Shown here: positions 8,843 to 30,413 of the stretch, piece by piece
Layout: every line of letters begins with the position of its first letter
How positions within the stretch are numbered: position 1 is the stretch's first letter
UHGV virus genome: UHGV-1380027
Length of the DNA stretch: 64,000 nucleotides
Reading direction: 5' to 3' (one strand)
Source: a virus
Translations under genes and position numbers: made by a program
The notes under the pieces: model-generated
Told to the model about the DNA's origin: nothing
Databases searched by the model: none
Seen by the model: only the letters and a program-made list of their open reading frames with translations

Positions 8843-11620
8843 TTAGTGACAATCGCCCCAGTTACGACCGCACAAGTATTCACCTGTGATCTGGAACGGA
8901 ACGCCCATCATTTTAGAAGCCTGCCAGAAGCAATGCACCACCATTTCGCCCACAGGGCTCCAGATAAGTTCAAGCTTTCCGTCATCGTTCAAGATAGGAT
9001 CGTATACCGTATTTCCGTCCTTGTCAACCACTTCGTTTCCGTCCTCATCTTTGCGTGCCTTTTTGTACTTATGACCGTCGAACACATGAAGTTTAGCCTC
9101 TTGTTGGGCTTTAAATGTTTCCAGCTCTTCAATTGTGTCGAAGGTGTATACAGTTTTATACTTAGGGGTGTCAGGCACTTGAAGCTGATATTCGTCATGG
9201 TAATAAATAATACGACGAACACCTTCATCATACCATCCACGCTTCACCATTTGGTGGTGCATGAGGATTCCGACCAAGTCGCACAACGATGCACCGCCAT
9301 TTTGCTGATATGCATTAAGCAAAGAGTGTTTAGAGCGGGTCCAAATGGCATGCCCGTCAAAAGAGTAGATAAATTTCTTACCTGTTGCTTCCCAGAATTT
9401 CTCCAGATCCTCTTTGCGCCCCTTAAGACCTGGGTTGGCATCCCAGAGAGCATCAATTACTCTCTGCCCCAGTTCTGGAGAGATATCCAGCATATCTGCA
9501 ACTTTATCTTTTTGTGCCCCATACATAACCCCATACGTGATAGGTTTACCATCGTTACGAGACACCTCTCTACCTGCTACTTTTGTATATGCCTCAGCAT
9601 TGTTTTGGTGCGCGTCCCCGTTACTTACAACATCATAATACAGGCCGTTGTCAAACTCAAATGCACCCCAGGCCCCGATGAGCTGCTCTAAGTTGGACCC
9701 GTCAATACCGATCTCAAAGTATCCAGGAGGAACACCCCACAGACTACGCATCTCTTTACCCATAACCACTTTAGGAGATGGTTTAGGCATGTTTGCACAA
9801 ATACTATGTTTCTGTCTGGAAGTGTTTGTTAATCCAGAACTTTTAGCAGGAAGCTTGTGGTCAATCTTCAAACGTGGATGATTAAGAAGACCAGTATCAA
9901 CCTTATCTTCCTTGATTGGATCAAGGACCGATCTGCGGTTTCGCAATGATAACCACAAAACGATATCTTTAGCCATCTCTCCGTTCAATTTTTCAAGATT
10001 CGGGCACAGGTGTCCAAACGTATCTTTCAGTTGCGGAGAAGTAATAAGCGCTCTGGCTTTTCTACGTATCTTCCCAAACACTTCCTTTTTAATCCTTTCT
10101 GAGTTAGGGAAGCTTCGGAACTTATGCACAGTTGTCTGGAACTTGGCATCAGTTTTGTTCCAGAAGTTGATAATTAGATCACAATACTCTGACTCCAAAA
10201 GCTCGTCCATATATGCATATACTCGTGCATCAACATCTGCATCAGGTAAAGCTTTCTTCTTGCTGTCTTTAGTTACATCTTTAGTTCTCCACATTGTTGG
10301 GAGCCAACCAGCACTGATCAGGTATCGCTTGATGTCGTCCTGATTGCTGATTTTCATAGGTATCTTGCAGTCAGGCATTCGCTTCTGCTGTAGGTCACTT
10401 ATCGCCTGATCCATCAGCTCTTTAGGTAAAGGGTGTGGTGTAGAAGTTCCTTTGATATACCCCCTCAAGAAATCAGCCATCTTATCGGGGTCTTTACAGC
10501 CCATCTCTTCACACCATTTTATCCCCATCTTACTTACATCCCCTGTGGAGGTAAATGCTCGCTTAGGAGGAGCTTTGAACTCTAAAGCACTCATGTCCAC
10601 AGGGTAGCCAAGCTTGTCTTTTAACCATTTCCAACCATTATTGGAGATTGTCCCATCCTGGTTAAACGGCTTTTCAGGGAACTTAGGCCGCTGAGACATT
10701 GATAACTCTTTTAAAGGAAGTTGTGGTTCAACACGATCAGCGATCTCTTTCATCCACGCATCGCAACGGTCACGTAAAGCAATAGCCCCATCTATGTCGA
10801 AATACACCCCCTGTCGAGCCTGCAGCTCCATCAGGAAGTGCTGTAACATGCCTCGGCGTAATGCGTTCTTCCAGGTGATCTTCTTGAAGCCTTTCGGCTT
10901 CTCTTTGGCAGGATCGTACATAAAGTTCTGCATGTCAGATTTGCCGTAGAATACACCTTTTGATTCAGCTACCAACTCCTTCCAGAGCAACTCCTGAATG
11001 ATAACGTCCTCGAACACACGATCCACATACTTCCACAGCGGAAGCTCACGCCAGTCATCGATTTGAACTTTCTGGTTACCAAGGGCATAGCCCCATGCCA
11101 TAAGGCCATGAGGCCCAACAGGCTGCATTTTCTTGGTAACTGGATTGAATACTGCGTCCGGACAACCTTTTGGCAAAGGGCGGTCAGGCCACAAGATTCG
11201 ACTCATCGCTAACGTATCAAACAGATTAACCTGGTGGTCGTTGATAGTTCCCATGCATTTAGGATCACGGAACATATCAAAATGAATACCGGATAATCTT
11301 TCCATCAGCATAAAGTCGTAACTGTAGCAGTTATGGCAGTTCAAAGCCGTAGGTGACCAGTCTGAATTGCCTGTAAGCCAGCCTTCCAACTCTGAAAAAT
11401 CTGCTATGCGAGCCTCAAAATCTGTATAAAGGGTCTTCTTTGCCAGAATGAAGTTCTTAGCTTTCTCCACATCCTCTTCAGAGTAGTGTGTGCGGTCATT
11501 TAGGGGAAGGAACAGCATAAAACGGTTCTTATTCAGCTCTTTAAACAAACCGCAGTGATAATAAAGATCTGGGTCTTCCAGCAAGCCAGAGGCCTCAAAA
11601 TCGAACGACCACATGCTCAT
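8843..11620 (-). CDS. DNA polymerase, family A, with 3'-5' exonuclease domain (925 aa)
   Basis: Exo I FDFEASGL; motif A DGSNLEQLIGAW; motif B SRNDGKPITYGVMYGAQ; motif C IIYYHDEYQLQV; SD AAGGAGA. Confidence 0.85.
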   Translation of the reverse strand: MSMWSFDFEASGLLEDPDLYYHCGLFKELNKNRFMLFLPLNDRTHYSEEDVEKAKNFILAKKTLYTDFEARIADFSELEGWLTGNSDWSPTALNCHNCYSYDFMLMERLSGIHFDMFRDPKCMGTINDHQVNLFDTLAMSRILWPDRPLPKGCPDAVFNPVTKKMQPVGPHGLMAWGYALGNQKVQIDDWRELPLWKYVDRVFEDVIIQELLWKELVAESKGVFYGKSDMQNFMYDPAKEKPKGFKKITWKNALRRGMLQHFLMELQARQGVYFDIDGAIALRDRCDAWMKEIADRVEPQLPLKELSMSQRPKFPEKPFNQDGTISNNGWKWLKDKLGYPVDMSALEFKAPPKRAFTSTGDVSKMGIKWCEEMGCKDPDKMADFLRGYIKGTSTPHPLPKELMDQAISDLQQKRMPDCKIPMKISNQDDIKRYLISAGWLPTMWRTKDVTKDSKKKALPDADVDARVYAYMDELLESEYCDLIINFWNKTDAKFQTTVHKFRSFPNSERIKKEVFGKIRRKARALITSPQLKDTFGHLCPNLEKLNGEMAKDIVLWLSLRNRRSVLDPIKEDKVDTGLLNHPRLKIDHKLPAKSSGLTNTSRQKHSICANMPKPSPKVVMGKEMRSLWGVPPGYFEIGIDGSNLEQLIGAWGAFEFDNGLYYDVVSNGDAHQNNAEAYTKVAGREVSRNDGKPITYGVMYGAQKDKVADMLDISPELGQRVIDALWDANPGLKGRKEDLEKFWEATGKKFIYSFDGHAIWTRSKHSLLNAYQQNGGASLCDLVGILMHHQMVKRGWYDEGVRRIIYYHDEYQLQVPDTPKYKTVYTFDTIEELETFKAQQEAKLHVFDGHKYKKARKDEDGNEVVDKDGNTVYDPILNDDGKLELIWSPVGEMVVHCFWQASKMMGVPFQITGEYLCGRNWGDCH

Positions 11621-20146: not shown

Positions 20147-22129
20147 TTATTTGATGTTATTCTTTGTATCAATCAGTTCACGGTATTCAATCATAGCAGG
20201 AGTGTCCCAATATTTCAAGCCTACATGCTTCAAAAGTGGATATTTCTTTTCCAATCTTGCAATATAGGCCTTCCCGCACTTAACCCGGTTGGCGATTAAG
20301 ATTTTGGCACGATGATTTAGCTCACCGTACTTCCACGTGGTGCTACCTTCCCACTTGTGGAAATGTGGCCGATAACTTCCAAAATCCTGCATGGGGATAA
20401 TTTTACCTAACTGTCTGCACAGGCTGTCATATGAAGTTTCATTTGCTGCGCGAGTTAGTAAGAATTTCCAAGCATCCTCTTTCAACAAATGTTCCACATT
20501 CTTCTCTGTAACATATTGGCAATCAGGATCAGTCCAAAGCAGACGAGATTCCGACACCAGGTACAGATCTTCCCCTTCAGGAATCTGGAGTGCCGCACGC
20601 ACACGGTCATAATCTTGCTGGTAGATGTTGCTCATCTGCCCTAGCCAACAACTTCCGCGTTGGATATCCCCCTCATACGGTATGCAGTGCTTAATCTTCC
20701 TGAACTCTGCCTTAGTAATACGCTCACGCCGGAAGTAACCATCCTTCTCAAGTTTTTTAACCCAATAGCCTGGTTCGTAACGGGTTTTGGTTTCACCTTT
20801 CTTCGTAGGTCGGCGTGGAAGCTCCGATAACAATTTGACCGTATCTGCAAAAAACGGATGGTGTGCCGCCTCTTTAAACTCTTTCACCAGATCCGTGTTA
20901 CGGCAATAGAAAACGTTGCGTCCGGTAATCTCGCTTAAGTAGTTACACTTATTCCGGTTATATTTGCCGTCTCCGTCGTTAAATACTAAATAAACTCCCC
21001 GTAAGAATTCTACCTTTCCGTAGCAGGCGTAACCTATGCGGCCTTTATTTAAGCCGCCAGCGAAGATCTCGCAGTCCCCCAAATTTCCTAGCCCTGTTTC
21101 TTCCCAGCGGTCATACATAAAATTCTTACCGAAGATGTGCCCGAACACTCCACTGTTCTTCATCATCTCGCGTGCTTCTGAGGATGTTTTTGCTGTCTCC
21201 AGTTCTGCAACAACTTCTGCTCCACGAAGGCGAATGCCTTCTTTGACAAAAGCTTCCAAACGCTCTTGGAATCCACCATCGTCGTGACCTTCTATGGTCC
21301 ATTCACGCCCTGGGTTAATATTGCAATCTCCGATAGGGATCTCTACACAAATTGCAGGATAATCTATTAGTGTCTCCAGGAACTTAGAACGGTAAGGTTG
21401 GTGACCCATTACCACACGACTCTCGTCAGAGCTGGTATAACCCTTCAGGATGGTCATCTTCCAACCATCTTTTTCATAATAATACTGCGCCTCTACTTTG
21501 TCTCCCTCCAGCATCTTGCTCGTCATCGGGTCGGTGACAGTGAACGGAAATTTTGCATAGCGCAGGCATGATGCAATAGCGGTGCGATATTTCAGAACAT
21601 GCTCTTTCTTAACATGAAACTGAACTTTTACCCCGTTGTGCTCTTCAGTCTTCCGCTCACGGATCTTGGTGACATTTGGGATACCCTGGTCCAAGAACAA
21701 TAGGTATGTGCTTTCCACACCGTTGTGCACACTGATTACATCGAAAGTGTCCACCATGCTGAACGGGGCCTTTGAACCAACACCTTTATTGCCTACCAGA
21801 GCGTTGCTGTTGCGCTTGGTCGACTCACCGAGGTTCATGAAAGTGTTACGGACCATCTCTTCTGACATGCCTAATCCAACGTCCTGCACAAAGAAGTATG
21901 GTTCAAGGTCTGTAGGAGAGTGAATGATGATCGGAACATCACCCCGTCCAGACTCAACATGGGAGTCCACAGCATTGAAGATCGGTTCACGGCAGCTTGC
22001 CAGTACCTTATCTTCATAAATCCCTTTGATGATTAGCCCAAAAGTCTCTTTGTTCAGAGAAATTGATCCCCTGGTTACCTCCATATTCCCAGTTAGCACC
22101 GCTTTAGTTTCATTGCTGTTTACAATCAT
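20147..22129 (-). CDS. GHKL/Bergerat-fold ATPase domain protein, rIIA-like (660 aa)
   Basis: N-box REPIFNAVDS, G1 DVGLGM, G2 GNKGVGSK in N-terminal third; SD AAGGAG. Confidence 0.5.
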   Translation of the reverse strand: MIVNSNETKAVLTGNMEVTRGSISLNKETFGLIIKGIYEDKVLASCREPIFNAVDSHVESGRGDVPIIIHSPTDLEPYFFVQDVGLGMSEEMVRNTFMNLGESTKRNSNALVGNKGVGSKAPFSMVDTFDVISVHNGVESTYLLFLDQGIPNVTKIRERKTEEHNGVKVQFHVKKEHVLKYRTAIASCLRYAKFPFTVTDPMTSKMLEGDKVEAQYYYEKDGWKMTILKGYTSSDESRVVMGHQPYRSKFLETLIDYPAICVEIPIGDCNINPGREWTIEGHDDGGFQERLEAFVKEGIRLRGAEVVAELETAKTSSEAREMMKNSGVFGHIFGKNFMYDRWEETGLGNLGDCEIFAGGLNKGRIGYACYGKVEFLRGVYLVFNDGDGKYNRNKCNYLSEITGRNVFYCRNTDLVKEFKEAAHHPFFADTVKLLSELPRRPTKKGETKTRYEPGYWVKKLEKDGYFRRERITKAEFRKIKHCIPYEGDIQRGSCWLGQMSNIYQQDYDRVRAALQIPEGEDLYLVSESRLLWTDPDCQYVTEKNVEHLLKEDAWKFLLTRAANETSYDSLCRQLGKIIPMQDFGSYRPHFHKWEGSTTWKYGELNHRAKILIANRVKCGKAYIARLEKKYPLLKHVGLKYWDTPAMIEYRELIDTKNNIK

Positions 22130-22626
22130 TTATTGCGCTCCTTGTAGTAGATATGACTCCCGAATTGAGCTGTCCTCTGCATCTTTTTTGCCCATTTCGG
22201 TCGTACTTTTGTTGTATGGTAGTGTGTTGCTCCACCTGTTATATCCATAGCCATGTATGCAACATGGTTGTTATTATAGACCTTTAGAAGCATCTTTGCA
22301 AGACTTTTAGCGTGATCCCATGAATCTTTTTCTGTCACCTTAAAAGTTTTGCCGTGGTTTGTCCACGAAAACTGGTTAGGTTGGTAGACAATCTTTCTTA
22401 TAGTGTCTGGGTATTTGGGGTGAGATTTCCTGTTTAGTGTGGCAAATCCGGATGCCAGCATCCCCATCGTGCCATCCCCTCTAGCCTCCCTGTAGATATT
22501 GCATGCTAGAATGTTTTCCTTAGTATCCGACGGCTTGCAAGTGTGATATACTTTTTGTTTTGGTGCTGCAACAACAGGCAGCGATAAAAATGCGCTCAAA
22601 ATAATAGCAAAGATTTTAATTTTCAC
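22126..22626 (-). CDS. secreted cell-wall hydrolase, SleB/CwlJ-like (166 aa) with signal peptide
   Basis: N-terminal signal peptide MKIKIFAIILSAFLSLPVVAAP; motifs CNIYREARGD and YQPNQFSW. Confidence 0.6.
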   Translation of the reverse strand: MKIKIFAIILSAFLSLPVVAAPKQKVYHTCKPSDTKENILACNIYREARGDGTMGMLASGFATLNRKSHPKYPDTIRKIVYQPNQFSWTNHGKTFKVTEKDSWDHAKSLAKMLLKVYNNNHVAYMAMDITGGATHYHTTKVRPKWAKKMQRTAQFGSHIYYKERNK

Positions 22627-22646
22627 AATAGCTCCAAATAGAAAAT

Positions 22647-22662
22647 CCCCGCCGAAGCGGGG
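22647..22662 (-). terminator. rho-independent terminator hairpin (UUCG-loop type)
   Basis: minus-strand RNA CCCCGC-UUCG-GCGGGG followed by AUUUUCUAUUU; the U-tract overlaps the SD of the hydrolase gene. Confidence 0.6.
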
Positions 22663-22675
22663 TGTGTCTTAGAAA

Positions 22676-23056
22676 TTAATCGTAGTGTGCCAAAATCTCT
22701 CCATCGTTGCAAGTCCCCTCTACGAAGTTGTGAAGATTCATGCATTCATCTTGATAGAAGAATTTACCGCTTTTCAGCCGTAGACCAAACAACTCCGCAT
22801 CTCCACGATGGCAAGCCTCTACAAGTTCATAGATTTCATACGGTAATTCCCCATCGTCATGGAAGAACCCCGCTTTATCGTTGACATAGATGAAGAAATA
22901 GTCACTGCTGTCGCAAGCGTCCAGTATTTTAAACCAGATTTCATCCACATCTTTTTCTCGGATATCGATCACACAAGTGGAGCTGCATTCGTACTCCTTC
23001 TCCGGCTCCTCGGTCAATACCACTAGGTAGTTTCCCCGCTTACCTACTTTAGCCAT
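22676..23056 (-). CDS. hypothetical protein (126 aa)
   Basis: co-oriented ORF. Confidence 0.5.
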   Translation of the reverse strand: MAKVGKRGNYLVVLTEEPEKEYECSSTCVIDIREKDVDEIWFKILDACDSSDYFFIYVNDKAGFFHDDGELPYEIYELVEACHRGDAELFGLRLKSGKFFYQDECMNLHNFVEGTCNDGEILAHYD

Positions 23057-23065
23057 ACAACCTCC

Positions 23066-24250
23066 TCAAGCTTTAGCTAAAATGGCGCTAAACTCTTCAC
23101 CAAACTCTTTTACAATCTTCATCAGGTTTGGGTATGCTTTGATCAGCTGAGCAACGATCTTGTCCCTGCCTTTACCAATAAGTAAGGCATTTCCTAAGGC
23201 GTTAGGTTTCATCATCGCCATAAAGACTGAGAATACAAAGTCTCGGTTCTCATCCTTGAAATTTTCCCAAAGGAAATCAAGGAAGTTTGCCACACAGCTG
23301 ACGAGATCTTCGTCGGAGATACTTGCATTTTCCATCATATTACGAATAGCGATACAACCTTCAGACCCCAGAATCCACAAGATGTCTGGCTGCTTAGGAC
23401 CTACATATTCTTTGCAGCCTCCTGCCATAATCCGACCGATTTCTGGCAAGTTTCGTTTCTTGGTGTGGTAGGTCCAAATTTCTACCGCTGCAGTGTGACC
23501 AATTGCACCTTGTAGAAGGACACGGGCCATAGCGTCAGAAATAATACCGCTGTCAAAATCGTGCAGGATGTCAGATGCAGCAACCCAAGATCGCGGTGTA
23601 GCAAAAGATGGACAATTAATCTCAGCCATGGCCTCATAATTATCGATGGCTGATGGGACTCTTTTCAGATATCCAATTACCGAGGAGTGCACCCCATTAA
23701 GGAATGCATAGTCCTCAATAAACACCTCTGCACTGCTTGTAACTTCTACAATGATAAAGCGGTTAGCTAGAGGAGCTTCGAGCGCCGAAAGAACAGCACC
23801 GTCTGTAGCACGGTTACCTGCAGCTACAAAAACAGAGCCCTTAGGAAATGCATAGGTGCCGCACTTGTGGTCGAGCATAATTTGCATTGCAACCTTCTGC
23901 AGGTAGTTATCTGCATGAGTAAGCTCATCTAGAAAGATAATTCCGCTCCAGTCCGGATCTGCAGGCCAAAATTCTGGAATTGCAAACACTGTGCGTGTAG
24001 TCCCATCCGACTCTACAGGGATAGGTAGCCCAGATAAGTCAGCAGGATCTTTATCTGACAACCGCACGTCAACCAGGTTGTCATCTCGCTCACCGAACAT
24101 GTTATCAGCAATCTGCTTCATCACCTGGCTCTTCCCCACGCCCATCGGTCCTAAAATCAGGACAGATCGGTTATGACGCTGGGCAAATTGAATAATAGCT
24201 GGCAACTCGCGGACAGTGATTTGACCACTTTCGAATACGTTTCTTGACAT
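23066..24250 (-). CDS. AAA+ ATPase, MoxR/AAA_5-like (394 aa)
   Basis: Walker A LGPMGVGKSQ, Walker B IIFLDELTHA, sensor-region AAGNRATDG. Confidence 0.65.
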   Translation of the reverse strand: MSRNVFESGQITVRELPAIIQFAQRHNRSVLILGPMGVGKSQVMKQIADNMFGERDDNLVDVRLSDKDPADLSGLPIPVESDGTTRTVFAIPEFWPADPDWSGIIFLDELTHADNYLQKVAMQIMLDHKCGTYAFPKGSVFVAAGNRATDGAVLSALEAPLANRFIIVEVTSSAEVFIEDYAFLNGVHSSVIGYLKRVPSAIDNYEAMAEINCPSFATPRSWVAASDILHDFDSGIISDAMARVLLQGAIGHTAAVEIWTYHTKKRNLPEIGRIMAGGCKEYVGPKQPDILWILGSEGCIAIRNMMENASISDEDLVSCVANFLDFLWENFKDENRDFVFSVFMAMMKPNALGNALLIGKGRDKIVAQLIKAYPNLMKIVKEFGEEFSAILAKA

Positions 24251-24519
24251 TAGTAAAAGTCCTCTACTTGTGTGTAAGTGTTTTCAAAGTTTTCCAAAAC
24301 AGACATCACATCGGATCTGTCAATATCATACGCAACTCTCCAGCCATATGCAACCCTTTCTGCTGTTGCCTCTTCTGGCGCTAGTCGTCTGCTGGCATAA
24401 AAGAGTGTTGGAGTACACTTTCTTGCTTGCCCTCTAACTTTCCCATAATAATATCTGTGAATATCTTTGTCAAAATTTAATTCTTTTTCTGCACGAAGTT
24501 CGTACTGCTGGTATAACAT
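24250..24519 (-). CDS. hypothetical protein (89 aa)
   Basis: co-oriented ORF, start overlaps stop of upstream gene. Confidence 0.45.
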   Translation of the reverse strand: MLYQQYELRAEKELNFDKDIHRYYYGKVRGQARKCTPTLFYASRRLAPEEATAERVAYGWRVAYDIDRSDVMSVLENFENTYTQVEDFY

Positions 24520-24563
24520 CTCTACTGCTCCTTAAGCAGCATCCTTGCCGCCATCCCTGCCCA

Positions 24564-24944
24564 CTAAAATGCAGTCCGAATCCAGACAAGGTTCTTATCT
24601 GCCCAATCATAGAGGCAAGTCATTGCACTATTGAATTGCTCACACGGAGGATAATCTTCTTCCATCTTGCGCATAGCAGAGCCTTGTGGGTAAAGCTCCC
24701 GTGCTGCAAACCACGCGTCGTAGTCATCAACGGTATCGAAGTAGTATACAACATCCTCCAACTCAGGATCGAACTTTGAACTATCAGGATCCAGCCGTTC
24801 AGGGAACTTGGAGCGTAACTTGCCAGCCACAATACTTGCCAACTCGCTAACATGTTTGTTGTCCCACTCTACCAGTTTCCCGTCTTCAGTTATGCGTCCT
24901 AACCACTGATCATGAAGGTCAACTGTTGTCTTCCACTGGGCCAT
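24564..24944 (-). CDS. hypothetical protein (126 aa)
   Basis: co-oriented ORF. Confidence 0.5.
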   Translation of the reverse strand: MAQWKTTVDLHDQWLGRITEDGKLVEWDNKHVSELASIVAGKLRSKFPERLDPDSSKFDPELEDVVYYFDTVDDYDAWFAARELYPQGSAMRKMEEDYPPCEQFNSAMTCLYDWADKNLVWIRTAF

Positions 24945-24946
24945 TA

Positions 24947-25204
24947 TCAGTCTACCTCTTCTTCTCGTTGCAGTTCAAGATACCCATAGGTCTGGATATC
25001 TTCAAAGGTGTGGAACTCTCCATCTGCCGCTAAGGCACGGACAACCTGGCATAGAGTTTTATAAGGTACTTTCTCCAAACCCAGATTCAGCGCAGGAAAA
25101 ACCTTATCTAAGTCAACAAAATATACAAACTGTAGCTCACCAGTTTCAAAAGGCGTATCTTCGATAAACATCTTCTCGGCATTAGTTAAGATTTGCACTT
25201 TCAT
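24947..25204 (-). CDS. hypothetical protein (85 aa)
   Basis: co-oriented ORF. Confidence 0.45.
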   Translation of the reverse strand: MKVQILTNAEKMFIEDTPFETGELQFVYFVDLDKVFPALNLGLEKVPYKTLCQVVRALAADGEFHTFEDIQTYGYLELQREEEVD

Positions 25205-25560
25205 TATTCTGACTCCTCTTCTTTTTCTTCAGCATTAGTTTCAGTACCACCCCACTCTGGAGTTTCCACCTCGACAGTAAACTCACGCACTACACGGTAA
25301 TTGCCCATGAAGCGCTCCACTTCTTCAAGGCTTATGGAGAGGCCATTGGCAACCAAGTCTGCAGCACCCTTCTCTACCAGGTAGTCCAGATTGGCTTCCA
25401 AGGCTTCAGGCTCAAACCCTGTCAATGCAATCATATAACCTTCCCCTTCATCAGGGAGGGCAATACAGCCCAACTGATTTTCTTTAAAAAAGCAGTGACC
25501 ATCACTATTGATTGGTTGCTCATTGCAGTAAATAGCTGCACGATAAGTAACTTTAGACAT
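25204..25560 (-). CDS. hypothetical protein (118 aa), acidic C-terminus
   Basis: co-oriented ORF. Confidence 0.5.
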   Translation of the reverse strand: MSKVTYRAAIYCNEQPINSDGHCFFKENQLGCIALPDEGEGYMIALTGFEPEALEANLDYLVEKGAADLVANGLSISLEEVERFMGNYRVVREFTVEVETPEWGGTETNAEEKEEESE

Positions 25561-25572
25561 TGATAGGCCTCC

Positions 25573-25851
25573 TTAGGCAACTGTCATTTTACATTCTTGA
25601 AATTTTAGCACAAGACGGTGATTGTGTCTAGTGTCTAAAAAGATTTTTTCAACCATCAGGCACACGGTATAACCGTCTGTCTTGTTGACAACAAAATCCC
25701 CAGGGTGAGGGAGAATGTCCCCAGGATTGGGGAAACATAACCCGCTCAAGAAGGCATCATCGGTGGTGGACTTAATGGATTTCCACACACTATCTGCCTG
25801 AACATTCTCACCAACATAATATACACTACCACATGACTTCATCATAGTCAA
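25573..25851 (-). CDS. hypothetical protein (92 aa)
   Basis: co-oriented ORF. Confidence 0.45.
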   Translation of the reverse strand: MTMMKSCGSVYYVGENVQADSVWKSIKSTTDDAFLSGLCFPNPGDILPHPGDFVVNKTDGYTVCLMVEKIFLDTRHNHRLVLKFQECKMTVA

Positions 25852-26747
25852 ATCTCCGCGTAAATTAAACTGGAATCAGTATACTTCTTTAGTGGGTAAA
25901 TATCCTGTCCATAGATGCCGTCATTAAACACCTCATCTACCCAAAGGCTACACTTATATCCCATCATCTCTAAAACACCCATCTCTTCTTCGGTAAACTT
26001 ATCACCGCTCTTGCAAGATGTCAACACCTCATTCTGTACTCTTGCTACCTCGAAGCGATTATTGGCAATATCGCTATTGGCGATCAAATACTCACCTAAA
26101 GGGTGTGCGGCATTAAAGATGCACAGTGGGCGGTTGACGTAATAGTCTCCAGGTGTATAAAAATTATTGAGGTCTTTCACTAGGACATTCTTATCAGTCA
26201 CTTCATTTATAACATCATGCATATCGCACATCTTTATATGTTTGAGGATTCCATCCCCCATCACAAAATAAAAACTTGCTGAGACACTCTCGGCATAGAT
26301 CTTACTAGATCCGTTGTAGTTGTATTTTACTCGGATGCTAACGGGGGTTTTTCCTGTCGCGTTAGCCATCATCCAAAGAAATGGCAGCTCATACTTCTCC
26401 TCTGAGGAAACAAAAGGTGAAGTTGCCAGAGATCGGAAACCTCCAGAGAAGTTGAAAGTTACAGAACCGCTCCGGCGGTATGATACTGCGTATTCCACTT
26501 TTATATCAACATATCCGTTGGAGTAAGTATGCCCTCCATTATCAAGGTATGTCCACTTATCTGACCCAGATACCAACCTCCGCTCAATTACCTTCATCAC
26601 TACAGGGATTAGCGGATTAGTACAAACCGATTTTGAAGTAGCTTTATCATCCAAAGCCTCGTAAATTGCAGAAAGGATATCACCTGCTGAGAGATTGGTT
26701 GTGATATCTTGTTTCCACCTGGTGCTAAAACTGTTAAGATTTGCCAT
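25848..26747 (-). CDS. hypothetical protein (299 aa), first gene of the minus-strand early block
   Basis: preceded by consensus-like promoter and SD TAGGAG. Confidence 0.55.
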   Translation of the reverse strand: MANLNSFSTRWKQDITTNLSAGDILSAIYEALDDKATSKSVCTNPLIPVVMKVIERRLVSGSDKWTYLDNGGHTYSNGYVDIKVEYAVSYRRSGSVTFNFSGGFRSLATSPFVSSEEKYELPFLWMMANATGKTPVSIRVKYNYNGSSKIYAESVSASFYFVMGDGILKHIKMCDMHDVINEVTDKNVLVKDLNNFYTPGDYYVNRPLCIFNAAHPLGEYLIANSDIANNRFEVARVQNEVLTSCKSGDKFTEEEMGVLEMMGYKCSLWVDEVFNDGIYGQDIYPLKKYTDSSLIYAEI

Positions 26748-26787
26748 GAGTAAGTGCTCCTATGTTAGTTTTCTTTTGAATGGGTGC

Positions 26788-26816
26788 ACTATATCGTGGA
26801 TTTAGAGTAAAGTCAA
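26788..26816 (-). promoter_or_regulatory. sigma70-type promoter (TTGACT-N17-TATAGT) for leftward early block
   Basis: on minus strand TTGACT (26816-26811), 17-nt spacer, TATAGT (26793-26788). Confidence 0.55.
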
Positions 26817-26829
26817 TACGTTTTTCAGG

Positions 26830-26858
26830 TTGACATCTTCTCAGGCACTTGGTAAGAT
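26830..26858 (+). promoter_or_regulatory. sigma70-type promoter (TTGACA-N17-TAAGAT) for rightward cassette
   Basis: TTGACA 26830-26835, 17-nt spacer, TAAGAT 26853-26858; divergent to the minus promoter. Confidence 0.5.
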
Positions 26859-26889
26859 TTCTCCACCCACAGAGAACAAGAGACAACTC

Positions 26890-27879
26890 ATGAATCTTGA
26901 AAAATATTATACACCAGAAGAGTTAGAGCGCTTGCTCAAAAAATACAGACGCAAACAGAATAACGCACGGAAACGGGATATAGAGTTCAACCTGTCATGG
27001 GAAGAATATCTCCTATTTGGTAAAAAACTTTTAGGAGAGGGAGTATGCGACTATACCCTTATACCTTTCGACATGCACACAGATGAAAACGGACTGGGAA
27101 ATCCTTTCTACCCATCTCTAGAGCGGATAGATGATGAAGGTCCTTATGCGGTTGATAACTGTTGTGTGGTAGGATTGAGATGCAACTCTCTAAAGGACTG
27201 TCTGGTAGATAAAAAGACCGCAGTCTTGATTAAAGACAAAACTGATCGAAAAATTGTCCAGCAGATGATGCTCCACCTGAGCGAAGAGCGTATGGAGAAA
27301 TTGAAAGGTGATTACACTTTTGAAGATTTCATCTTGCAATATGGAACGGAAGAGGATAAACTAGCACTCTTTGACGAAGAATGGGAGGAAGATATGTCAC
27401 CAATGCAGGATTTTAAAAACTTCATGGCTAATCGTGGAGCCAACAAGCACATTTCTGACATTGTAAACGAGCCTGTAGTAGAGGAGATTGAAGAGATGAC
27501 GCAACAGGCTTACGAAGAGGAAAAAGAGCCTCAAGGGGTCGAAGAAGAGCTTACAGAAGAGGTTCCTGCACTGCCTGACGATGTTGAGATTGCCAAAGCT
27601 TACACTTTCTATTGCCAGACGTTCTACGATGCAGGTATGAAAGTTGATCTGTCATTCAGCCAGTTTAAGAGCACATACATTCGAAAATGTTGTGCTTTAA
27701 CTGGTGAACGTCTCGGTGCCGGACTTAAACCCCTATTAGTTACCGACTGGAACAAAGGTTTCACCAAAGGTAACTTCATGGTAGTATCTCCAATCATGGA
27801 GAAGGCTATGACAGACCTTATGAAGACCACTCGCATGACAATGACCGAGTTGGCTGGTATTTTCAAGCACGTTAAATAA
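26890..27879 (+). CDS. protein with two tandem HNH-like (zinc-ribbon/HNHc-type) modules (~329 aa)
   Basis: FNLSWEEY...CDYT...PSLERIDDEGPYAVDNCCVVGLRCNSLKD and a second degenerate copy CCALTGERL...KGFTKGNFMVVSP; start set to ATG 26890 because track TTG 26830 lies inside the promoter. Confidence 0.35.
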   Translation: MNLEKYYTPEELERLLKKYRRKQNNARKRDIEFNLSWEEYLLFGKKLLGEGVCDYTLIPFDMHTDENGLGNPFYPSLERIDDEGPYAVDNCCVVGLRCNSLKDCLVDKKTAVLIKDKTDRKIVQQMMLHLSEERMEKLKGDYTFEDFILQYGTEEDKLALFDEEWEEDMSPMQDFKNFMANRGANKHISDIVNEPVVEEIEEMTQQAYEEEKEPQGVEEELTEEVPALPDDVEIAKAYTFYCQTFYDAGMKVDLSFSQFKSTYIRKCCALTGERLGAGLKPLLVTDWNKGFTKGNFMVVSPIMEKAMTDLMKTTRMTMTELAGIFKHVK

Positions 27880-27891
27880 TGACAGGGGCCA

Positions 27892-29373
27892 ATGGCCCCT
27901 TCTGGAGTTTTAATGGATAGCAGAAGTTCAGAAATCATTACCGCACAAAAAGATGATGCCTTGCGAATGCTGCAGGCCGCTCGCATGTACCTTCTTGAAA
28001 AGCTGCCGTTTTATGGCACACTGTTGTCAGGGTTGCAGTTCGTAGAAAACCACACATGGTGCTCCACTATGGCAACAGACCATAAACGCATCTACTACAG
28101 TCCTGAGTTCATTATGGGGTTGGCAGATGAGCGTAAAACCATTCTTAAAGCATCTCTGACTGACAAGCAGTTTGAGATGGCTGAAGTTTTCTATTCCCCA
28201 AAATCTGTGAAAGAGGTGGCCTTTCTTCTGTCACATGAGGTGGGGCATATTATCTGTGATCATCTGGTCCGTGGTAAAAGCTTTGAGCCGGAACTGTTCA
28301 ATATTGCTTGTGATCACGTTATCAACACAGGTCTTGTGGTTGACTTTAGCAAGCCTCCTTGTGTTTTCTTCCCGAAGGGGAAAAGCACTGAGTTCGTAAA
28401 AGGTAAGCCTTTTGGCTTCTTAGCCAGTTGCTACTGCGACATGGAGTTTCATGGATGGATTGCTGAGAACGTCTATGCAGTTCTTGATAAACAAAGAGAT
28501 CAGAATAGCGGTAAAAGTAAGAACGGTAAAGGTGAGAACTCCCAAGGAGATAAACGACAAACCGATGATCACATGAGTGGGAACGGTGGCACCAGTGATG
28601 ATCTTGGAAAGGCTATGGGGTATGATCAGCCGCAACCAGTAATCAGTCAATCTGATAAAGATCAGGCCATGCAGGACTCTGGTGACATGTTGGAAGCAGC
28701 AATGCAAGCTTCAGGAGGTCGTTGCCCCGAGGCGGTGCGCGAGTTTGTCAAAAACAGAGGCAAGCCTGTAATCAATTATATAGATATTATTAAGCAACGT
28801 ATGTTATCTAAAAGAAAGGCTGAGTTAACCTACAGAAAACCTGGTCGCCGATCTGGGTCTTTGACCACCACAATGCGAAAAGTTGGAGCTATAAACAAGA
28901 ATCAACACGTTATTGTTCCTGGTCGTAATCCGGAAAACACTATAGATATTGTAGTGGCTTTAGACGTTTCTGGATCGATCTCACAAAGAACTTTAAAGAA
29001 AATGTTCAATGAGATCACCGGGTTGTGCAATTTGTATAAAGAGTTTAAGGTTACGATGTTCTGTTGGTCAACCGAGGTTGGAGAGGTTAAAGTATACACT
29101 CGCGGTAACATCGATGAGATGATCAACTATGAGGTCCACTCAACATGGGGCACAACAGCCGCCTGCGTGTTCGAGTATCTGGATGCTAACATACCGAATG
29201 CAAAAGATGTCATCGTCCTTACCGATCTCTACTTTGAGCATAACTTTGAACAAAAGGCTGTTGACAACAAGTGGAAAAAGTACGATACTTTATGGGTTCT
29301 CACTGAAGGGTATAATAAAAATTATATCCCGAGCTTTGGGAAAACTGTGGAATTAATCGAGTACGTTAAATAA
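27892..29373 (+). CDS. putative metallopeptidase (HExxH) + von Willebrand factor A domain protein (493 aa)
   Basis: SHEVGHIICDH zinc-binding motif in N-terminal half; MIDAS motif VVALDVSGSIS in C-terminal half. Confidence 0.6.
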   Translation: MAPSGVLMDSRSSEIITAQKDDALRMLQAARMYLLEKLPFYGTLLSGLQFVENHTWCSTMATDHKRIYYSPEFIMGLADERKTILKASLTDKQFEMAEVFYSPKSVKEVAFLLSHEVGHIICDHLVRGKSFEPELFNIACDHVINTGLVVDFSKPPCVFFPKGKSTEFVKGKPFGFLASCYCDMEFHGWIAENVYAVLDKQRDQNSGKSKNGKGENSQGDKRQTDDHMSGNGGTSDDLGKAMGYDQPQPVISQSDKDQAMQDSGDMLEAAMQASGGRCPEAVREFVKNRGKPVINYIDIIKQRMLSKRKAELTYRKPGRRSGSLTTTMRKVGAINKNQHVIVPGRNPENTIDIVVALDVSGSISQRTLKKMFNEITGLCNLYKEFKVTMFCWSTEVGEVKVYTRGNIDEMINYEVHSTWGTTAACVFEYLDANIPNAKDVIVLTDLYFEHNFEQKAVDNKWKKYDTLWVLTEGYNKNYIPSFGKTVELIEYVK

Positions 29374-29388
29374 AGGAGGAGATTATTT

Positions 29389-29652
29389 ATGGCAACAGAG
29401 TTAAAATTTGCATCCAACCGTAAAACTAAGAAGTATCTGTCTTCAGTAGCTCCAGGTACTGTGGTGATGTTTGTTGATGAACTTGGAGATGTGAATACAG
29501 CACTTGTTGTGAGATCACATCCTGCAAACATATATGTTGGGGTATTTGACCTGTTCAGAAAGGTGTTTGCAGAACTACCTCACACCTTGGTTGTTACAGA
29601 AATGGATGCCTGCATAGAAATTCTTGGCGAAGTTATGGTGGAGGAACAATAA
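29389..29652 (+). CDS. small protein, tandem paralog 1 of 4 (87 aa)
   Basis: SD AAGGAGGAG; shares GTVV...FDL...LP...VTE.D..I.ILGE pattern with next ORF. Confidence 0.6.
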   Translation: MATELKFASNRKTKKYLSSVAPGTVVMFVDELGDVNTALVVRSHPANIYVGVFDLFRKVFAELPHTLVVTEMDACIEILGEVMVEEQ

Positions 29653-29915
29653 TGGCTACTAGCATTGTATTCAATTCTAAAGTGAAGAACAAAAAGCGTG
29701 CAGACAGTTTTCCATGTGGGACCGTGGTAAGTTGTGACGGAGACGGCATTCAAAACATAGTTATGATTGTCAAAACAGGGGAACATTGTGTATGGGGGTT
29801 CGATTTAGAAAATAATGAGTTGTACGATCTGCCACCAAACATGAAAGTTACAGAGCTTGACACCAAAATTACCATCCTTGGAGAGACAAGCTATTCAAAA
29901 GAAGGAGGAGAATAA
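29652..29915 (+). CDS. small protein, tandem paralog 2 of 4 (87 aa)
   Basis: TAATG overlap with upstream gene, SD GGAGGAA. Confidence 0.6.
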   Translation: MATSIVFNSKVKNKKRADSFPCGTVVSCDGDGIQNIVMIVKTGEHCVWGFDLENNELYDLPPNMKVTELDTKITILGETSYSKEGGE

Positions 29916-30178
29916 TGACCACGAAAATCACCATTGCAGAACCAAAAGCTAACACGCAACCTATCGAAAAGTTTAAATGCGGTGAGGTGGTAACATTTAC
30001 ACCAGATAATGAAGATGCTAAGATTTTTGCCATGGTAACAGCCGAGTGGATGTGTGACAATACCACACAGGTGCTGCGTTTTGACACCTATCTTACAGAT
30101 GAAATCAGGAACGACAAGATCGTGACTGGTGTGGATACTGAGATTATTTTCTACAAGAGCTTTTTAGAGGGTTTCTGA
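29915..30178 (+). CDS. small protein, tandem paralog 3 of 4 (87 aa, more diverged)
   Basis: TAATG overlap, SD AAGGAGGAG; same length, FKCGEVV and VTGVDTEIIF motifs. Confidence 0.55.
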   Translation: MTTKITIAEPKANTQPIEKFKCGEVVTFTPDNEDAKIFAMVTAEWMCDNTTQVLRFDTYLTDEIRNDKIVTGVDTEIIFYKSFLEGF

Positions 30179-30179
30179 T

Positions 30180-30413
30180 ATGGCAAAAATTCGTAAATTA
30201 TCCAGCAATCAGGTTGTGAAAGACTTTGAATCTGGAGAGATCTTGTATGTCCGTGATGCAGATGATGAATGTGAAGATCTTGTTATGCTGGTAGGGCACG
30301 CTGAAGACGGATGCATCCAGGCTGTTTTTCTTGAAACAGCGATGGTGCACTGGATAGAGCTGGACCTGAAAGCACGAAAACCTAAAGCAGAAATCATTAT
30401 TTACGAAGATTAA
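30180..30413 (+). CDS. small protein, tandem paralog 4 of 4 (77 aa, most diverged)
   Basis: immediately follows paralog 3; FESGEIL motif at conserved position. Confidence 0.5.
   Translation: MAKIRKLSSNQVVKDFESGEILYVRDADDECEDLVMLVGHAEDGCIQAVFLETAMVHWIELDLKARKPKAEIIIYED

Follow-up and report, generated by a model that had tools for sequence, protein, structure and literature searches.

A MoxR-class ATPase gene and its probable vWA/metallopeptidase partner gene split across a divergent promoter region in Escherichia phage vB_EcoM-ECP26

In the group 2.2 jumbo phages, a MoxR AAA+ ATPase and a vWA protein fused to a metallopeptidase have been described, computationally, as a chaperone/co-chaperone pair (Iyer, Anantharaman, Krishnan, Burroughs & Aravind 2021, Viruses 13:63; PMC7824862). 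For this pair a role in virion assembly and processing has only been predicted (PMC7824862). The genes gp24 and gp25 (vWFA) are kept as a pair in all N4-like phages (Schitoviridae), where they are among the 14 core genes (PMC4193335). Among the virus-encoded couples cited in PMC7824862 and PMC7159879, only p618 (MoxR) and p892 (vWA) of Acidianus two-tailed virus have experimental support for a role, in tail development. The mechanistic template is the cryo-EM structure of NorQD, in which one vWA docks at the pore of a hexamer (PMC13036017, PMC9976466). NorQ-NorD and CbbQ-CbbO belong to the CGN subfamily of MoxR AAA+ proteins with vWA partners, and Midasin/Rea1 carries an AAA_5 ring and a C-terminal MIDAS domain.

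The window analysed here is a 64-kb stretch of Escherichia phage vB_EcoM-ECP26 (Vequintavirus, rV5-like), a non-jumbo phage of 137 kb. It contains exactly one member of each family, the ATPase (23066-24250, minus strand) and the vWA/DUF2201 protein (27913-29373, plus strand). Both ORFs were found as the initial annotation gave them and coincide with CDSs annotated in MK883717.1, where the first is labelled 'MoxR ATPase' and the second is mislabelled as 'anti-sigma factor'. The genes are 3.66 kb apart on opposite strands and flank back-to-back sigma-70-like promoters, the unusual split that the initial annotation had pointed out. The two genes correspond to the module formed by N4 gp24/gp25 and by the jumbo-phage MoxR-vWA(MPTase) pair, and it is likely that their products are the two components of a single conserved machine, namely a MoxR-class ATPase and its cognate vWA adaptor fused to a zincin-like metallopeptidase. 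The split is a genuine, if modest, variation on the gene order of a widespread phage pair already described computationally in jumbo phages (PMC7824862).

As in the jumbo phages, a MoxR-like ATPase goes together with a vWA protein that has an N-terminal metallopeptidase domain, and homologues from Asteriusvirus, RaK2 and 121Q were recovered directly with both window proteins. However, the jumbo-phage genes are adjacent and co-directional. N4 gp24 and gp25 are distant homologues of the two proteins (identity ~22-28%); their genes lie on the same strand with at most one small ORF between them and are middle genes transcribed by the N4 RNAP II system, whereas the ECP26 pair lies behind host-type sigma-70-like promoters. 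The Acidianus two-tailed virus couple is from an archaeal virus, p892 has no peptidase domain, and p618/p892 were not recovered as sequence homologues of the window proteins. Midasin/Rea1 differs in being one giant eukaryotic polypeptide with six fused AAA modules, active in ribosome biogenesis.

In the ATPase (394 aa, phrog_1297, the rV5-type 'MoxR ATPase') an AAA+ core (approximately residues 1-280) precedes an additional C-terminal helical bundle (~280-394). On the minus strand we find Walker A GPMGVGKS (24128-24151), Walker B IIFLDE (23924-23941), sensor-1 AAGNR (23810-23824), the Arg finger ANRF (23756-23767) and sensor-2 ATPRS (23588-23602). These motifs are invariant among 24 homologues, and judged by them the protein is a catalytically intact AAA+ ATPase. 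Alone it reaches no Pfam AAA cut-off (AAA_5 16.9 bits vs 22), so the direct profile search proposed in the initial annotation would have looked negative. Single-sequence searches yield sub-threshold, mostly P-loop-limited matches to ClpB/ClpC, AAA_14, Sigma54_activat and others, as would be expected of a generic AAA+ protein (Clp/Hsp100-like, sigma-54 activator-like or similar) that has no vWA partner and shares a genome with the vWA gene by coincidence. We find this explanation hardly credible, as the ClpB/ClpC-type matches span the Walker A region only and the ATPase profile search instead leads to the Midasin AAA ring, the best PDB profile match, over residues 19-174. It is also opposed by the fold search with the AF2 model (pLDDT 82.8), in which the top 17 PDB matches are all NorQ or CbbQ2, by the AAA_5/AAA_3 domains of relatives at 33-38% identity and bpMoxR among the homologues' domains, and by the DUF2201 vWA gene that almost always adjoins the ATPase gene. 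By the modelled fold and by transitive homology the ATPase is thus placed in the MoxR class, as the initial annotation had it. NorQ-NorD and CbbQ-CbbO are the closest solved structures to the model; however, sequence identity is just 16-21%, and the phage ATPase has the ~110-residue extra C-terminal helical domain.

The partner (486 aa) begins with a DUF2201_N domain and ends with a vWA domain; between them lie a disordered acidic/Gly-rich linker and, after it, a conserved basic YR(K/R)PxRRS segment. For this protein the profile search did succeed, with PF13203 (2.2e-28) and PF09967 (3.6e-11) both over the curated cut-offs. DUF2201_N, a putative zincin-like metallopeptidase, contains HEVGH (28234-28248), and the MIDAS of the vWA domain is complete, with DVSGS (28963-28977), the T in WGTT (29146-29157) and the D in LTD (29218-29226), all on the plus strand. 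The HExxH and MIDAS-vWA architecture that had been proposed is therefore present. The C-terminal domain has a vWA fold, with the NorD and Midasin MIDAS domains among the structural matches; for the N-terminal 'metallopeptidase' domain, no solved structural relative was found. Conservation of the HExxH motif suggests peptidase activity. NorD shares the order of N-domain, disordered linker and C-terminal vWA with MIDAS, but the phage N-domain is a putative HExxH peptidase and not a NorD- or CbbO-type domain, and the NorQD/CbbQO targets, nitric oxide reductase and Rubisco, are irrelevant to a coliphage. The ORF and its end agree with the initial annotation. The start given there, an in-frame ATG at 27892, falls within a GC-rich hairpin and probably lies 21 nt upstream of the true one; the likelier start is the annotated ATG at 27913, which a GGAG Shine-Dalgarno precedes by 6-7 nt.

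In almost all other lineages examined, the homologous genes lie next to each other in the same direction, which supports the idea of a cognate pair. Among the 80 best-scoring ATPase-profile loci in IMG/VR, the ATPase gene is directly followed by a co-directional DUF2201-type gene in 68, and 2 are split as in the window; of the remaining 10, 9 end ≤200 bp from the ATPase. Among the best-scoring 80 in bacterial genomes, 64 likewise have the DUF2201-type gene directly after the ATPase gene, 8 have the co-directional genes separated by 0.8-4.5 kb, and in none are they on opposite strands. Loci in both collections are phylogenetically clustered and the counts are not independent events. Adjacent pairs are found in Certrevirus, contigs L003-L008, N4-like Ab09 (gp24/gp25), cyanophage S-TIM5, jumbo phages of Asteriusvirus, a 578-kb contig and a bacterial genome. 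In A5-4 the pair is adjacent save for an inserted HNH homing endonuclease, and in Campylobacterota chromosomes the pair forms two-gene operons. Phage records number 813 vs 675 for the two genes, and their distributions over host genera run in parallel (Escherichia 214/214, Pectobacterium 26/26, Cronobacter 17/17).

The divergent split is found only in Vequintavirus, Seunavirus and related Klebsiella phages, i.e. one subclade of the Vequintavirinae, while Certrevirus and A5-4-like members of the same subfamily have adjacent genes. As adjacency is the arrangement elsewhere, the split is derived. The ancestral order would have been ATPase then vWA, adjacent and co-directional. A rearrangement in the common ancestor of the three groups would have put the vWA gene behind a Srd-like gene, on the other arm of a bidirectional sigma-70-type promoter region, and left the ATPase on the arm that also leads to a SleB-like hydrolase gene and rIIA/rIIB. 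The Srd-like gene (26890-27879, plus strand) encodes a putative anti-sigma factor, the rV5 gp11 homologue (phrog_3118, phrog_1400 Srd, phrog_4592 sigma-70 decoy; annotation; PMC3606486). It opens the plus-strand arm directly upstream of the vWA gene, and this linkage is common to all genomes with the split (synteny in L009, L010, L014).

The vWA gene trails the Srd-like gene by zero or one small gene in every split-type genome, and in genomes with adjacent genes no Srd-like homologue was found ≤9 kb from the ATPase. This would fit a loss of partnership after the split, in which the vWA/peptidase would join, for example, either the Srd-like anti-sigma factor, for host takeover, or a MoxR ATPase of the host, such as RavA, and the phage ATPase would work on its own or have a different partner. 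We consider such uncoupling very unlikely. Both genes are retained together, with intact motifs, in every split-type genome seen, and both are under strong purifying selection after the split (dN/dS 0.022 for the ATPase and 0.036 for the partner); the catalytic and MIDAS residues are all invariant across split and unsplit lineages. The ATPase/vWA identities to the window fall in parallel, from 54%/43% in a Klebsiella phage to 50%/46% in 4MG, 36%/37% in A5-4 and 34%/34% in PBES02, and neither family, vWA or AAA+, has a second member in the window. The whole 8-kb region is kept in 115 out of 122 related genomes.

The ATPase and the vWA protein probably still act together. If it works like NorQ-NorD, CbbQ-CbbO and Rea1, the ATPase would form a hexameric ring, and one or a few copies of the partner would dock at its pore through the vWA domain. 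The MIDAS site would hold an acidic residue of a substrate protein, which could be a phage assembly or a host protein. ATP hydrolysis would then remodel the substrate or the linker, and the HExxH domain would thereby be enabled to cut the substrate or be switched on. We found no experiment in the literature on any member of this phage subfamily.

The arms diverge from a 142-bp intergenic region (26748-26889) with back-to-back sigma-70-like sites, TTGACT-17-TATAGT (26816-26788, minus) and TTGACA-17-TG-TAAGAT with an extended -10 TG (26830-26858, plus), and both genes are therefore still under the same control region. The sites agree with promoters predicted in phage Gotham, and bidirectional promoters have been reported between rV5 genes 10 and 11 (PMC3606486). 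Promoters and terminators are consensus matches only; 24 are counted in the region, against 16.5 +/- 4.4 in shuffles, an excess below 2 sd. Between the minus-strand promoter and the ATPase lie six small or unknown genes (299, 90, 118, 85, 126 and 89 aa; 24250-26747, minus). The 89-aa gene shares one base with the start of the ATPase. Of the six, only the 126-aa gene (24564-24944) keeps its place beside the ATPase in the Klebsiella phages and in Seunavirus.

The initial annotation suggested that the split could allow differential timing. Separately regulated units, in which the ATPase and the vWA/peptidase differ in time or amount, would then be the selective reason for the split. The two genes do belong to different transcription units, and the ATPase is the seventh gene, ~2.5 kb from its promoter, compared with 1.0 kb for the vWA gene. 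A strong candidate site, TTGACA-17-TATTAT (24473-24445, minus), matches the sigma-70 consensus best in the region (11/12), lies inside the 89-aa gene 195 nt upstream of the ATPase start, and may be an internal promoter driving the ATPase. A GC-rich palindromic hairpin between the Srd-like and vWA genes, AGGGGCC-AAT-GGCCCCT (27884-27900), is not a canonical plus-strand terminator but may be an attenuator, limiting read-through, or an RNA-stability element, and lower vWA expression would suit a 1:6 stoichiometry like that of NorD:NorQ. However, because both units start from the same 142-bp region, simultaneous early expression is the default expectation. No strong terminator was seen between this region and either gene, and no expression data for the two genes were found in the literature. 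The separate signals are also older than the split: a promoter-like site (11/12) and a strong terminator already stand between the adjacent genes of Certrevirus PBES02, and hairpins closely precede the vWA gene in unsplit and split genomes alike (PBES02, L012 10219-10242; Seunavirus 4MG, L010 4633-4653). Differential timing is thus unsupported and appears an unlikely reason for the split.

At the other end of the minus-strand unit, a second 126-aa gene (22676-23056) follows the ATPase. A strong bidirectional hairpin, CCCCGC-TTCG-GCGGGG (22647-22662), with a T-tract on the minus strand, is likely the end of the unit with both genes, and phage Gotham has an annotated terminator at the corresponding position.

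Over 8 kb around the two genes, the window matches Escherichia phage vB_EcoM-ECP26 (MK883717.1, Vequintavirus) at 99.9% identity and more than 100 other rV5-like phages at 93-95%. Window coordinates were obtained by adding 4752 to those of the MK883717.1 record, where the ATPase ORF (23066-24250, minus strand) is labelled 'MoxR ATPase' and the vWA/metallopeptidase ORF (27913-29373, plus strand) is an annotated CDS. The initial annotation had started the latter at 27892; its end at 29373 on the plus strand holds, but that ATG falls within a GC-rich hairpin (27884-27900) directly 5' of the gene, and the better start is the annotated ATG at 27913, with a GGAG Shine-Dalgarno ahead of it. MoxR-vWA couples normally have the vWA partner encoded next to the ATPase; in the window the two genes are on opposite strands, separated by a gap of 3.66 kb.

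Six small genes (24250-26747, minus strand) lie between the ATPase and a divergent intergenic region of 142 bp (26748-26889), and on the other arm an Srd-like gene homologous to rV5 gp11 (26890-27879, plus strand) is found 5' of the vWA gene. The intergenic region contains back-to-back sigma-70-like sites, TTGACT-17-TATAGT (26816..26788, minus strand) and TTGACA-17-TG-TAAGAT (26830..26858, plus strand), both of them consensus matches that correspond to promoters predicted in phage Gotham and to bidirectional promoters reported between rV5 genes 10 and 11 (PMC3606486). The earlier description of the pair as lying either side of divergent promoters is thus correct. Another promoter-like site, TTGACA-17-TATTAT (24473..24445, minus strand, 11/12), is the best sigma-70 consensus match in the whole 8.5-kb region. 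It is located 195 nt 5' of the ATPase start, inside an 89-aa gene that shares one base with the ATPase start codon; the phrog_13164 label of this gene, 'ATPase', has no domain support. The sole strong terminator on the ATPase side is at 22647-22662, past the gene following the ATPase. The first gene of the minus-strand arm (25848-26747) is called 'putative alpha 1-3 fucosyltransferase' in many records; it has no match in Pfam, NCBIfam or PADLOC, and phrog_12338 (function unassigned) is its sole match.

The ATPase has the full AAA+ catalytic set, i.e. GPMGVGKS (Walker A), IIFLDE (Walker B), AAGNR (sensor-1), ANRF (arginine finger) and ATPRS (sensor-2). In an alignment of 24 homologues the residues G37, G39, K40, S41, D108, E109, N146, R147, R164 and R220 are invariant. 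The sequence itself reaches none of the Pfam curated cut-offs (AAA_5, 16.9 bits vs 22; bpMoxR, 15.7 vs 27; no AAA_3 match), and PHROGs assigns it to phrog_1297, 'ATPase'. A database search returns thousands of homologues. Those at about 33-38% identity (E ~1e-45, 80-85% coverage) carry PF07726 (AAA_3, the MoxR model), PF07728 (AAA_5) and sometimes PF20030 (bpMoxR). The Campylobacterota ATPase passes the AAA_5 and AAA_3 cut-offs, the Aliarcobacter homologue scoring 33.9 vs 22 and 27.2 vs 27.

To place the protein structurally, the profile of the 24-homologue alignment was compared with the PDB, and the best match is the Midasin AAA ring (1.7e-10, residues 19-174). An AlphaFold2 model (pLDDT 82.8, pTM 0.76) was also searched with Foldseek; the top 17 PDB matches are all NorQ or CbbQ2, with TM-scores to the target of 0.49-0.66. 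Both are MoxR-class ATPases of the CbbQ/GvpN/NorQ group. NorQ and CbbQ lack the extra helical domain that the phage model has from about residue 280. The MoxR clade is characterised by a hairpin insert between beta2 and beta3 and by short strands ahead of the sensor-1 strand. Both features are predicted in the model, the first as strands 75-81/84-90 after helix 2, the second at about 129-134, ahead of sensor-1 strand 138-146. Single-sequence searches of Pfam, NCBIfam, PADLOC and the PDB (phmmer) also gave matches to ClpB/ClpC, AAA_14, Sigma54_activat, DpdH and BrxF. We rejected these identities because the matches are sub-threshold and limited to the P-loop, and preferred the profile and fold results. 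From the profile and the predicted fold we conclude that the protein is a divergent MoxR-class AAA+ ATPase; together with the Pfam domains of the homologues, they point to this class and not to a family without vWA partners, in line with the MoxR assignment made at the outset.

The partner is assigned in Pfam to DUF2201_N (PF13203, 'putative metallopeptidase', 100.1 bits vs a cut-off of 23.2, 2.2e-28) and to DUF2201 (PF09967, 'VWA-like', 43.7 bits vs 26.4, 3.6e-11), in the order N-terminal peptidase, C-terminal vWA, both above cut-off. Among 19 homologues, down to 25% identity, H108 and H112 of the HEVGH motif are invariant and E109 and H117 nearly so. The MIDAS is complete (DxSxS...T...D), with D351, S353, S355, T414 and D438 invariant in the same 19 sequences. 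In the AlphaFold2 model (pLDDT 78.1) a confidently predicted N-domain (1-198) is followed by an acidic/Gly-rich linker without order, then by a basic stretch that is conserved (consensus YRRPxRRS) and lastly by a C-terminal domain with a vWA fold. Public records call the protein 'anti-sigma factor' (in this phage), 'HNH endonuclease' (phrog_1314, many PHROG-annotated genomes), 'DNA repair ATPase' or 'Zn-dependent hydrolase'. No HNH or Srd-type domain was found in it; Pfam gives only DUF2201_N and DUF2201, while NCBIfam and PADLOC are blank. The HNH and anti-sigma names, which no domain supports, appear to be annotation errors. In the phage V5 reference record (NC_011041.1, 7756-9214) the match to the vWA gene is broken in two and extends over two annotated features, a sign that this record may contain a frameshift or a sequencing error.

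We examined the pairing of the two genes in other genomes, as the initial annotation had proposed. HMMs built from the ATPase and partner alignments were run on six-frame ORFs of the 80 best-scoring IMG/VR loci retrieved with the ATPase profile. A DUF2201-type gene is directly downstream on the same strand in 68 of the 80 loci, the two ORFs overlapping by up to 58 bp or lying up to 269 bp apart. Two loci are split as in the window, and of the other ten, nine end less than 200 bp from the ATPase. Among the 80 best-scoring bacterial loci retrieved with the ATPase alignment, the genes are adjacent in 64. In eight more the DUF2201 gene is on the same strand 0.8-4.5 kb downstream with other genes between, two have no DUF2201 gene within 5-8 kb and six end too early; none of the 80 has it on the opposite strand. 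The loci of both collections are phylogenetically clustered, and their counts are therefore not counts of independent events. Even so, the order ATPase, then vWA gene is found in about ten separate lineages.

The lineages are diverse. A gene with DUF2201_N and DUF2201 is directly downstream of the ATPase on two short metagenomic contigs (ATPase 38-39% identical to that of the window) and on phage-like contigs of 15-155 kb that encode a 360-aa ATPase at 35% identity. The pair is also adjacent in cyanophage S-TIM5, an Asteriusvirus jumbo phage, a 578-kb contig and a bacterial genome. In Campylobacterota chromosomes (Sulfurimonas, Sulfuricurvum, Aliarcobacter; loci L105, L119, L158 and about 70 others) it forms a two-gene operon amid housekeeping genes. 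N4-like phage Ab09 has a gp24-like gene, one small ORF and a gp25-like gene, and our HMMs score the two products at 157.7 and 157.3 bits, respectively. N4-like phages are also matched by tblastn with either window protein. Against 50,697 phage records, tblastn finds 813 records with the ATPase and 675 with the partner, with closely matching host-genus counts. This is quantitative evidence, at the sequence level, that the rV5-type ATPase and DUF2201 protein are probably a cognate pair homologous to N4 gp24/gp25.

Some neighbouring genes recur. An Hsp20 gene is directly upstream of the ATPase in S-TIM5 (locus L094, 4524-7159), and Hsp20, ClpS and ClpP are less than 5 kb from the pair in the 578-kb contig (locus L096, 1592-8591), a hint of a role in proteostasis. 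The 155-kb environmental contigs (L005-L008), S-TIM5 and Asteriusvirus A4 (L095), three phage lineages that are unrelated, all have a thymidylate synthase gene three to five genes after the vWA gene.

Among the loci examined, the divergent split is found solely in a Vequintavirus/Seunavirus/Klebsiella-phage subclade. The Vequintavirinae hold both states. Certrevirus PBES02 also has a divergent promoter region, and there a single arm holds the two genes side by side. Their order is the same in A5-4 (locus L011), where an HNH homing endonuclease gene (10285-10779) sits exactly between the ATPase and the vWA gene, so the junction tolerates insertions. The architecture of the window is shared by Seunavirus 4MG, Klebsiella phage vB_Kpn_K54_rec4 and IMG/VR locus L014. 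In the split genomes, one arm contains the Srd-like gene and then the vWA gene, with at most one small gene between them; the other contains a conserved 126-aa gene, the ATPase and, 4-6 kb further downstream, a gene for a SleB-like hydrolase, after which rIIA/rIIB come in the two split loci that reach that far.

The split is most simply explained as a single event, and it must be old, as it is common to lineages whose proteins are just 43-54% identical to those of the window. We rejected a simple inversion model: inverting the promoter-to-ATPase segment once fails to give the gene order seen, in which the SleB-like gene has also switched arms. In adjacent-type genomes this gene lies on the other arm and no Srd-like homologue is found within 9 kb of the ATPase, thus the rearrangement was more than one simple inversion. 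All ATPase and partner motifs are conserved after the split, and a comparison of the window with phage Gotham gives a dN/dS of 0.022 (ATPase) and 0.036 (partner) at a dS of ~0.35. The split is a natural experiment showing that tight operon linkage is dispensable for the pair.

It had been suggested that the split could allow differential timing of the two genes. We find no support for this, as the same bidirectional promoter region serves both genes and signals separating them already exist in Certrevirus. In PBES02 (locus L012) a promoter-like site (10191-10218) and a terminator (10219-10242) lie between the adjacent genes. A GC-rich hairpin just 5' of the vWA gene is found in Vequintavirus, Seunavirus (4MG, locus L010, 4633-4653) and Certrevirus, i.e. 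in both adjacent and split genomes, and the Certrevirus one overlaps the promoter-like site. It could be a conserved attenuator setting the vWA dose. In the window, the doses of the two genes may differ because of the promoter-like site ahead of the ATPase and the hairpin ahead of the vWA gene. The same kinds of signals separate the adjacent Certrevirus genes, and the two doses seem to have been controlled independently before the split arose. The NorQ:NorD stoichiometry is 6:1 (PMC9976466), and we speculate, by analogy, that a lower vWA dose would suit such a ratio. The pair sits among small genes behind host-type promoters, which suggests early expression and would suit host takeover as well as later assembly; a literature search for Vequintavirinae transcriptomes found none.

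NorQ-NorD provides a template for the mechanism, with a hexamer, a vWA finger that plugs it and a MIDAS on an acidic patch of the target (PMC9976466, PMC13036017). By analogy, the partner would insert a finger of its vWA domain as a plug into the phage ATPase hexamer, and the MIDAS face of that domain would bind an acidic patch of the target. ATP would then be used to remodel whatever the MIDAS site holds, and the fused HExxH domain would either cut the substrate or be switched on.

Group 2.2 jumbo phages have the same architecture as the window pair, and for these Iyer et al. 2021 proposed virion assembly with proteolytic processing, citing the MoxR-vWA pair of Acidianus two-tailed virus (PMC7824862). 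In N4-like phages, gp24 and gp25 (vWFA) are among 14 core genes and belong to the middle transcripts in N4 (PMC4193335). A different function can be imagined from the position of the vWA/peptidase gene behind the Srd-like anti-sigma gene. Its relocation there would be adaptive and the ATPase-driven peptidase recruited to early host takeover, e.g. by ATP-dependent capture and cleavage of a sigma factor or defence protein, and, more generally, N4 gp24/gp25 and the related pairs of hundreds of phages would form a phage-encoded regulated protease aimed at host proteins and not a virion-assembly chaperone; taken jointly, we consider this chain of claims very unlikely. Membership in a defence system, as in MoxR-vWA ternary conflict systems, was rejected: a third component and a PADLOC match are both lacking, and the bacterial homologues are amid housekeeping genes. 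Literature on DUF2201 and phage MoxR-vWA pairs yielded computational mentions only, with no expression or functional data found.

The finding is a variant in gene order within a system of a known kind. GenBank and the rV5 paper already contain the genes, the names 'MoxR ATPase' and 'metallopeptidase' and the divergent promoters, and the phage pair of MoxR and MPTase-vWA had been described computationally; the quantitative evidence for a cognate pair of rV5-type ATPase and DUF2201 protein, homologous to N4 gp24/gp25, and the confinement of the split to one subclade among the loci examined are added here. In rV5-like phages the 'MoxR ATPase' and a protein variously mislabelled 'anti-sigma factor', 'HNH endonuclease' or 'metallopeptidase' probably make up a single conserved module. 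N4-like phages have it among their core genes, and it is also found in Campylobacterota chromosomes and in many phages of the jumbo and environmental kinds. The misleading names given to the vWA protein can now be corrected. This is of limited but real practical value, and the current view of MoxR-vWA systems is not overturned. The rV5-like coliphages and N4 infect E. coli K-12 and are amenable to genetics, which makes the pair a tractable model, and the contrast with the adjacent Certrevirus genes offers a handle on how the expression ratio matters.

Straight after the vWA gene there is a run of four small genes (29389-30413; 87, 87, 87 and 77 aa). Genes one and two are clearly paralogous (37% identity, z 18.6), genes three and four show weak similarity (z 4-5), and similar 264-bp genes are found near the divergent region in 4MG, PBES02 and A5-4. 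Finally, 16 GenBank 'Campylobacter phage' records (host Campylobacter jejuni) are more than 90% identical to window positions 22000-30000 (93.4% in one listed), and the ATPase of one, A112b, has 99% protein identity to that of the window; this looks like mislabelling or contamination of the deposits.
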